From assembly GCA_964428355.1 (NCBI GenBank), contig CAYRYU010000004.1:67261-131260 (forward strand): a DNA stretch of 64,000 bases, written 5' to 3'. The notes under the pieces are model-generated. The model was not told the DNA's origin and did no database searches. It saw only the letters and a program-made list of their open reading frames with translations. This document shows, in pieces, positions 32,138 through 32,269 of this stretch; within the stretch, counting starts at the first letter, position 1, and each line of letters starts with the position of its first letter. A program made the translations under genes and the position numbers. The DNA comes from an uncultured bacterium. Its GTDB lineage: Bacteria > Muiribacteriota > Ozemobacteria > Ozemobacterales > Ozemobacteraceae.

Positions 32138-32269
32138 CCGAAAAAAAGGGACATGAGAATATTTTACTAAAAAGGGGACAGGAAAGACTTTGTTAACCAG
32201 CCAATCATCTCCCCATCAAAGTTCCGTGTGCCAAAAATCGGGGACATGTGAATCATTTCGGGAAAAGCA
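32138..32269. repeat. Cluster of GGGGACATG-family repeats in the divergent PKS/MVP control region, including a perfect 11-bp-arm palindrome
   Basis: AGGGACATGAGAATATTTT lies at 32138-32156 and AAAAGGGGACAG at 32161-32172. The palindrome GGGGACATGTG-N17-CACATGTCCCC spans 32231-32269. The same 17-nt core GGGACATGAGAAT.TTTT recurs at 52700-52720. Confidence 0.55.

Follow-up and report, generated by a model that had tools for sequence, protein, structure and literature searches.

Homologous copies of a short AT-rich repeat are present at two intergenic loci of a 64-kb stretch of DNA (hereafter, the window) from a member of Candidatus Riflebacteria, and these copies form a real family. The complete element of this family is an inverted doublet of an approximately 24-nt unit (AAAAAGGGGACATGAGAATCTTTT), and a transcript of either strand gives a stable stem-loop with an A-run before it and a U-run after it; the solo units are more diverged than the complete elements. 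We see about an even chance that the copies belong to a lineage-specific family of short AT-rich palindromic repeats of a REPIN- or MITE-like type, with the intact copies as putative bidirectional terminator or RNA-stabilizer hairpins and the solo units as decayed remnants. The repeat is genuine but modest and of a fairly ordinary kind: it is a new lineage-specific instance of the small palindromic repeats of intergenic regions that also serve as terminator-like hairpins.

Table 1. Repeat Elements, Inferred Promoter, and Adjacent Genes in the Window
Feature	Position	Strand	Description
PKS/PUFA-synthase-like gene, 2,629 aa	24192–32081	−	NMO-KS-AT-ACP-KR-DH-PPTase
Unit A (D2 reference copy)	32142–32165	+	AAAAAAGGGACATGAGAATATTTT
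Unit B	32169–32192	+	AAAAAGGGGACAGGAAAGACTTTG
Doubtful remnant of the inverted partner of B	32206–32214	−	GGGGAGATG; one mismatch to GGGGACATG; may be chance
Unit C (left arm of hairpin C)	32235–32258	direct copy	AAATCGGGGACATGTGAATCATTT
Complete hairpin C	32235–32283	both strands	A-rich flank AAAAT, 12-bp stem, 17-nt loop, T-tract 32280–32283
Inferred MVP promoter	32286–32314	+	TTGCAG-N17-TATAAT; read from sequence; begins 6 nt after hairpin C
Major-vault-protein (MVP) homolog, 823 aa	32352–34823	+	MVP shoulder and Vault_3 domains
Response regulator	52099–52668	+	Receiver domain only; convergent with amylase gene
Tandem box E	52683–52696	+	AAAAAGGGGACATT (AAAAAAGGGGACATT as 52682–52696); exact 13-mer match
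Palindromic element D	52690–52756	both strands	Two inverted units, 32-nt arms, 3-nt center
Unit D (locus 2)	52697–52720	direct copy	AAAAAGGGGACATGAGAATCTTTT
Alpha-amylase/CBM20 protein	52773–54566	−	Convergent with response regulator gene

Repeat Units and Their Statistical Support

A repeat search of the window identified a direct-repeat family (D2) comprising four copies of 24 nt that start at 32142, 32169, 32235, and 52697 and that we refer to as units A, B, C, and D, respectively (table 1). Compared with unit D at the second locus, A is identical at 22/24 positions, C at 20/24, and B at 19/24. The unit contains no internal inverted repeat and is palindromic only as a doublet. The 13-mer GGGACATGAGAAT occurs three times without mismatch in the window (32148–32160 and 52703–52715 on the plus strand and 52731–52743 on the minus strand) and a fourth time, at 32241–32253, with one mismatch; allowing up to two mismatches gives six matches compared with 1.98 expected, a number reached by none of 100 shuffled sequences. 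For the 13-mer that forms the 5′ half of the unit (AAAAAGGGGACAT, referred to as the box), eight matches with up to two mismatches were found compared with 2.2 expected, again with no shuffle among 100 reaching the observed count, and seven of the eight are inside the two intergenic regions (32142–32283 or 52683–52749). Because shuffles of the whole window ignore the AT-rich nature of the spacers, we used a stricter control in which shuffling was restricted to the 20 intergenic regions of the window, which add up to 2.3 kb. Across different intergenic regions, the closest pair of 24-mers agrees at 22/24 positions, compared with a maximum of 20 in 200 of these intergenic-only shuffles.

The regions that host the repeat have the lowest GC content of the 20 intergenic regions (0.45 and 0.39), in line with the low-GC islands described in the original prediction; the GC content of the window is 0.592 rather than the approximately 62% assumed there. 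The half-site GGGGACATG occurs without mismatch four times in the 64 kb, each time within one of the two hairpins, and with one mismatch it is not enriched in the window (25 matches vs. 24 expected). For this reason we treat as a chance 9-mer the site GGGGACATA on the plus strand at 61250–61258, which had been put forward as a third intergenic locus of the same repeat and which we rejected as a family member: it has no further similarity to the unit, no profile match, and no family-type hairpin. The claim of a dispersed family thus stands for two loci, 32142–32283 and 52690–52756, and falls for the third, at 61250. At the first of these loci the sequences reported originally are present, but their coordinates were approximately 9–10 nt too low: the 17-nt core upstream of the PKS/MVP pair lies at 32148–32165 and not 32138–32156, the AAAAGGGGACAG copy at 32170–32181 and not 32161–32172, and the inverted pair, which is present as a hairpin, at 32240–32278 and not 32231–32269.

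A profile search with nhmmer, trained on four units (A, C, D, and D′), recovered the right arm of hairpin C, which was not used for training, with an E value of 0.012 and nothing else in approximately 180 kb of sequence (the window, 7 kb of flank, and approximately 110 kb from relatives). The E value of 2.6e-4 for unit A belongs to a member of the training set, and unit B matches the profile weakly (E = 6.4). Another weak match (E = 5), at 50384–50423, coincides with the ribosome-binding site and start codon of a Kelch-repeat gene (AAAGGGGGA-N8-ATG); the repeat core AAAGGGGAcATG is thus similar to a translation-initiation region, but its spacing is too short for function.

A Palindrome between Convergent Genes

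At locus 2, the inverted repeat consists of arms at 52690–52721 and 52725–52756 that are 32 nt long, 97% complementary, and separated by 3 nt, confirming the near-perfect palindrome with 32-bp arms originally reported between the response-regulator and amylase genes. Within element D, an inner hairpin with a 20-bp stem (GGGGACATGAGAATCTTTTC-GAA-GAAAAGATTCTCATGTCCCC; 52702–52744) is flanked by AAAAA on one side and (C)TTTT on the other. Box E sits 14 nt upstream of the box of D and contributes the GGACATT of the outer layer of the palindrome (GGACATT...AATGTCC); its A-run is the template of the minus-strand U-tract, so that the minus strand reads as the full stem followed by CCUUUUUUG. The predicted RNA folds have energies of −50.8 kcal/mol on the plus strand and −52.6 kcal/mol on the minus strand (z scores of −10.6 and −10.9), the DNA fold has an energy of −33.3 (z = −10.7), and a terminator scan calls D terminator-like on both strands. 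The element fills 67 of the 104 bp between the stop codons of the response-regulator gene (52666–52668) and the amylase gene (52773–52775). It departs from a canonical intrinsic terminator in its stem of 20–32 bp, the GC content of that stem (only approximately 45%), and its plus-strand tail of four U residues.

The most likely role of D is that of a predicted bidirectional, factor-independent terminator that would act at the RNA level for the two convergent genes, and it may also protect both convergent mRNAs as a 3′-end hairpin. Among JGI metagenomes, the nearest relatives of the amylase reach identities of only 50% and 45%. Just downstream of the ortholog with 50% identity, which is encoded on a metagenome contig with 46% GC, lies a long AT-rich hairpin with perfect pairing, AGAGCCTGTAAGAAAA...TTTTCTTACAGGCTCT (L055, 4840–4905). 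The sequence of this hairpin is unrelated to the repeat family of the window; a relative thus also has a hairpin or terminator site where D is found in the window.

Solo Units and a Shortened Hairpin in the PKS/MVP Spacer

Locus 1 lies inside the 270-bp spacer between the divergent PKS and MVP genes and contains a solo unit, a decayed unit, and a hairpin that is complete, though shortened. Solo unit A has no inverted partner and folds no better than shuffled sequences (z scores of −1.0 and +1.05). Decayed unit B is 71% identical to A, and its first 12 nt are identical to those of the locus-2 unit. Reading B together with the possible remnant of its partner (table 1) as a third hairpin was rejected, because the segment folds no better than shuffles (z = +0.73).

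The stem of hairpin C is formed by 32239–32250 and 32268–32279 (CGGGGACATGTG and CACATGTCCCCG), with AUUUUUGG as the minus-strand tail, and its RNA is predicted to fold with −22.4 kcal/mol on the plus strand (z = −4.4) and −22.6 kcal/mol on the minus strand (z = −4.2). The hairpin is flanked by tails of UUUU (plus) and UUUUU (minus) and lies between the divergent starts. The terminator scan gives no call on C because the loop, at 17 nt, exceeds the 8-nt limit of the scan. The alignment of C with the hairpin of D covers both arms and the loop and includes a 4-nt deletion in the right arm; none of the 11 core stem pairs is lost, and the one pair that differs is A-U in D and U-A in C. C and D are thus homologous as whole hairpins and their lone stem difference is compensatory, a change that is anecdotal given that it is seen in two sequences only.

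Folding had been suggested at the outset as a check of terminator function; D and C are far more stable than shuffles, and A is not. The accompanying idea that the repeats are structured terminators fits D, which lies between convergent genes, has A- and T-tract flanks, and is called on both strands, but does not extend to C, which lies in a divergent promoter region with no gene to terminate. Shortened and partly decayed, C may be neutral or may serve as an insulator that keeps stray transcription away from the divergent PKS and MVP promoters, and the solo units A and B are probably decaying half-elements.

TTGCAG-N17-TATAAT is a putative MVP promoter. We base this assignment on the same TTGCnn-N17-TATAMT arrangement upstream of other Riflebacteria MVP orthologs, where it is found at loci L049 and L051; locus L046 also has TATAAT. 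As a side result, the MVP promoter and leader look conserved in Riflebacteria, with TTGCnn-N17-TATAAT or TATACT, a leader of approximately 35–45 nt, and a GGAGG-type ribosome-binding site at its end (regions compared: 32286–32351 of the window, 9881–10000 of L046, 9900–10000 of L049, and 9913–10000 of L051). The intergenic spacers that host the repeat contain only short, unconvincing ORFs; a scan of the spacers made no consensus sigma-70 promoter call, and inspection by eye found no sigma-54 or CRP/Rex/CodY-type site in them. A search against Rfam gave no match at gathering score in the window, and locus 1 matched only a human lncRNA model, spuriously (E = 0.43).

Distribution outside the Window

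Seven kilobases of sequence to the left of the window (L053) contain no copy, leaving two loci in the approximately 71 kb that were read. The box and the unit are absent from approximately 110 kb of relatives' loci, including the regions upstream of MVP: the ortholog loci L046, L049, and L051 lack the repeat although the promoter is kept. Since the MVP genes of relatives do without it, the repeat by itself has no bearing on PKS/MVP function. MVP synteny is not conserved in the relatives. The 17-base sequence GGGACATGAGAATNTTTT has 44 single matches in the GTDB species genomes, a set from which the source genome is absent or masked, and this is approximately the number estimated by hand for 17 specified bases. 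Several of these matches lie at conserved coding starts (MRIFSG...); none of the 44 has an A-run or hairpin, and none is from Riflebacteria. A pattern that covers both hairpins, GGGGACATGNGAATN{10,30}CATGTCCCC, had zero matches in JGI metagenomes and zero in IMG/VR viral contigs, and a blastn search with D found no match in plasmids and phages. The repeat family is lineage-specific in that it is absent from the sampled relatives.

Two loci 20 kb apart in a window that was not selected for them do not fit a rare dispersed motif; they argue for either many copies genome-wide (by extrapolation, approximately one per 35 kb) or a local duplication. If the family is abundant, no small palindromic repeat would have been described in Riflebacteria before it, and it would exemplify a REPIN-like element that is AT-rich, has no tag, and also serves as a bidirectional terminator; it would help to annotate the ends of transcription units in uncultured genomes and add to what is understood of the spread of such repeats. 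A duplication confined to two loci would be no more than a minor detail of annotation.

Comparison with Known Repeats and Terminators

The REP sequences and REPINs of E. coli and Pseudomonas, which often occur in BIME clusters, are short and extragenic, and their inverted doublets of a 20–40-nt unit form a long hairpin, as do the elements of the window. In REPINs, doublets are conserved, singlets decay, and copies cluster (PMC3116915). The window doublets are likewise better conserved than the singlets (the arms of D are 97% complementary and C retains a 12-bp stem, with A and B decayed or partnerless), several copies are clustered in one spacer, and one copy lies between convergent genes. A dual role as terminator and stabilizer has been shown for an E. 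coli REP (bioRxiv 10.64898/2026.03.23.713779), and the window hairpins would probably serve as terminator and mRNA stabilizer as well. On the other hand, a REP unit is an imperfect palindrome of 20–40 bp that carries GTAG or CGTC as an unpaired tag on one of its ends (PMC3733652), whereas the window unit is not itself an imperfect palindrome and the ends of A, B, C, and D carry neither tag. Classical REP stems are G+C-rich, unlike the AT-rich window element in its 59% GC genome. REPs flank the gene of a cognate RAYT (Y1 transposase); a Pfam scan of the window ORFs found no transposase, integrase, or RAYT. Because the unit is nonpalindromic, untagged, and AT-rich and no RAYT was seen, we do not file the repeat as a REP; of the REP-like palindrome proposed originally, what holds is the inverted doublets, the decayed solo units, and the clustering, and what does not is the GTAG/CGTC tag and a RAYT in the window. 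REPs typically number more than 100 per genome and are almost exclusively extragenic. The window repeat is entirely intergenic, with two loci in 71 kb, and differs from REPs, which are seldom found in divergent promoter regions, in having one of its clusters in such a region.

Bidirectional intrinsic terminators share with the window elements the order of A-run, stable stem-loop, and T-run, such that either strand is transcribed into a hairpin followed by U residues. Such a terminator has a stable stem-loop with a U-rich tract within 0–2 nt on both strands; this is the structure found for D, and C has a stable stem (z of about −4.3) with U tails but a 17-nt loop that fails the scan. Terminators are located at the 3′ ends of transcription units, and so is D, between two convergent stop codons, unlike C, 6 nt upstream of the MVP −35 element. 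The window elements differ further from intrinsic terminators in the unusually long and AT-rich stem of D, the loop length of C, and plus-strand U-tracts of only four residues. Relatives commonly use bidirectional terminators of the A-run/stem/T-run type with unique stems, and ordinary terminators are not sequence families, whereas the window copies share descent.

Dispersed repeats that form terminators include inverted pairs of the Neisseria DNA-uptake sequence (DUS) and Correia and MITE elements. Correia elements and MITEs are 100–150 bp or longer and have terminal inverted repeats and target-site duplications; the window elements, in contrast, are wholly palindromic, and no direct repeat flanks C or D. 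The likeness to Neisseria DUS pairs is that of a common short sequence found as inverted pairs downstream of genes, a repeat family that doubles as terminator hairpins. DUS and USS, however, occur approximately once per kb and also inside genes, whereas the exact half-site GGGGACATG is confined to its four occurrences in the hairpins, and given that there is no overrepresentation outside the hairpins we do not regard the repeat as DUS-like.

Alternative Explanations

Local duplication without mobility, in which one or two events of recombination, gene conversion, or template switching copied ordinary terminator or spacer DNA between nearby spacers and there is no genome-wide family, is a real possibility but in our judgment a doubtful one. 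It would account for there being only two loci, 20.5 kb apart, with none in a further 7 kb, and for the sequence around both complete copies, C and D, which on inspection has no target-site duplication; the window holds no transposase either, and, provided that the GTDB collection includes the source genome with nothing but the window masked, that genome has no further exact copy of the 17-base core. However, the units at locus 1, at least three in number, have decayed to different degrees, which points to several events over time rather than one copy event, and the two loci have no flanking sequence in common, which indicates that only the element itself was copied. In the REPIN- or MITE-like reading that we favor, each copy would stem from another copy that was duplicated into intergenic DNA, spread would be nonautonomous, and locus 1 would record at least three duplication events of different age. 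A bolder version of this reading, namely, an undescribed and abundant family of untagged AT-rich REPIN-like mobile hairpins in Riflebacteria, moved by a non-RAYT transposase and supplying bidirectional terminators or insulators, including next to the vault-protein gene, we consider unlikely. Chance or convergent resemblance of independent AT-rich terminators with no common origin is barely conceivable. By our own estimate, it would not be very surprising for AT-rich spacers of approximately 2.3 kb to share a single exact 13-mer, and GGGGACATG with one mismatch occurs at chance frequency, but the 22/24 match is above all 200 intergenic-only shuffles, and two further units match at 19–20/24 in addition to the full-length homology of the hairpins; the intergenic shuffles and the profile search refute chance resemblance at the level tested.

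An operator or iteron array, in which the box AAAAAGGGGACAT binds a protein (a PKS/MVP regulator or a nucleoid- or partition-type protein) and the hairpins are a by-product of inverted sites, is distinctly unlikely. What keeps it under consideration is that the 5′ box of 12–13 nt is the best-kept part of solo units A and B, which form no hairpin; in addition, seven boxes with up to two mismatches are packed into two short regions in direct and inverted orientation, four of them in the 140-bp divergent promoter region, and the palindrome of C is centered approximately 60 bp upstream of the inferred MVP transcription start, a typical activator position. Operators are expected at promoters and conserved upstream of orthologs, but locus 2, with a stop codon on either side, has no promoter that could be regulated, MVP orthologs keep the promoter without the box, and no other promoter in the window has the box. 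No gene for a DNA-binding regulator is adjacent, the neighboring response regulator being a receiver domain only. The similarity extends far beyond the box, over 24 nt in A and over the whole hairpin and loop in C versus D; together with the 32-nt palindrome of D and the compensatory stem difference, this argues for pairing or common descent rather than a short protein site. The transcription-factor operator, with half-sites far shorter than the arms, has thus become the weakest of the readings first offered. The clusters at 32.1 and 52.7 kb might also be transposase-binding repeats at the Tn7-like ends of a 20-kb mobile element or island, which we regard as very improbable. The left and right ends of Tn7 have a superficially similar layout of spread and compact repeat clusters, and the window has two clusters of three to four repeats with a unit of approximately 22–24 nt, one over approximately 140 bp and the other within a compact 67 bp or so. 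However, there is no transposase, integrase, or recombinase gene between or beside the clusters, both orientations are found within each cluster instead of one per end, and the 20 kb between the loci match their flanks in composition (32352–52668, GC 0.581 vs. 0.600 and 0.595; tetranucleotide correlation 0.98).

Neighboring Genes and Other Features of the Window

The calls of the PKS, MVP, response-regulator, and amylase genes made originally proved correct, and between the two loci are genes for MVP, TrkA/TrkH, an aminotransferase, an M1 peptidase, a Kelch protein, an Fe-ADH, and the response regulator. The best named matches to the MVP protein are from Riflebacteria or Ozemobacteraceae (70–76% identity), and an identical protein is present on an NCBI contig and in Logan run SRR12133403; the organism occurs in run SRR12133404 as well. 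MVP homologs are very widespread, with 6,934 proteins at E values of 1e-50 or less and named matches in Riflebacteria, Desulfobacterales, Eremiobacterota, and Planctomycetota; conservation of the PKS neighbor of MVP does not extend to the three relatives examined.

Other terminators in the window, at 34849–34877 and 43494–43519, are short and GC-rich. The first belongs to a canonical GC-rich bidirectional hairpin (34843–34883) between MVP and an AAT-like gene, and the second has a CCCCCC...GGGGGG stem followed by T9. Two paralogous genes without a Pfam domain (40528–41646 and 43590–44699; direct repeats D1 and D4) lie 3,065 bp apart and are 72–76% identical at the nucleotide level, with a third domain-less gene (41854–43443) between them. 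An acetate-kinase-like ORF (59072–60337) overlaps a phosphotransacetylase-like ORF (60246–61238) by 92 nt; the PTA_PTB match begins only at residue 111. The start codons may be misassigned, or there may be a frameshift. A 46-nt inverted repeat with 78% complementarity (348–393 and 5113–5158, 4.7 kb apart) is probably paralogous coding sequence rather than a structural element, its arms being in or near radical-SAM genes on opposite strands, and in L053 a radical-SAM gene adjoins an SDR gene. Finally, the 64 kb encode three large SpoIIE (PP2C) sensor proteins (6291–9278, 9239–12127, and 54626–57601), two of them with a HAMP domain, whose mutual identity of only 27–28% suggests a large, old paralog family in this genome.
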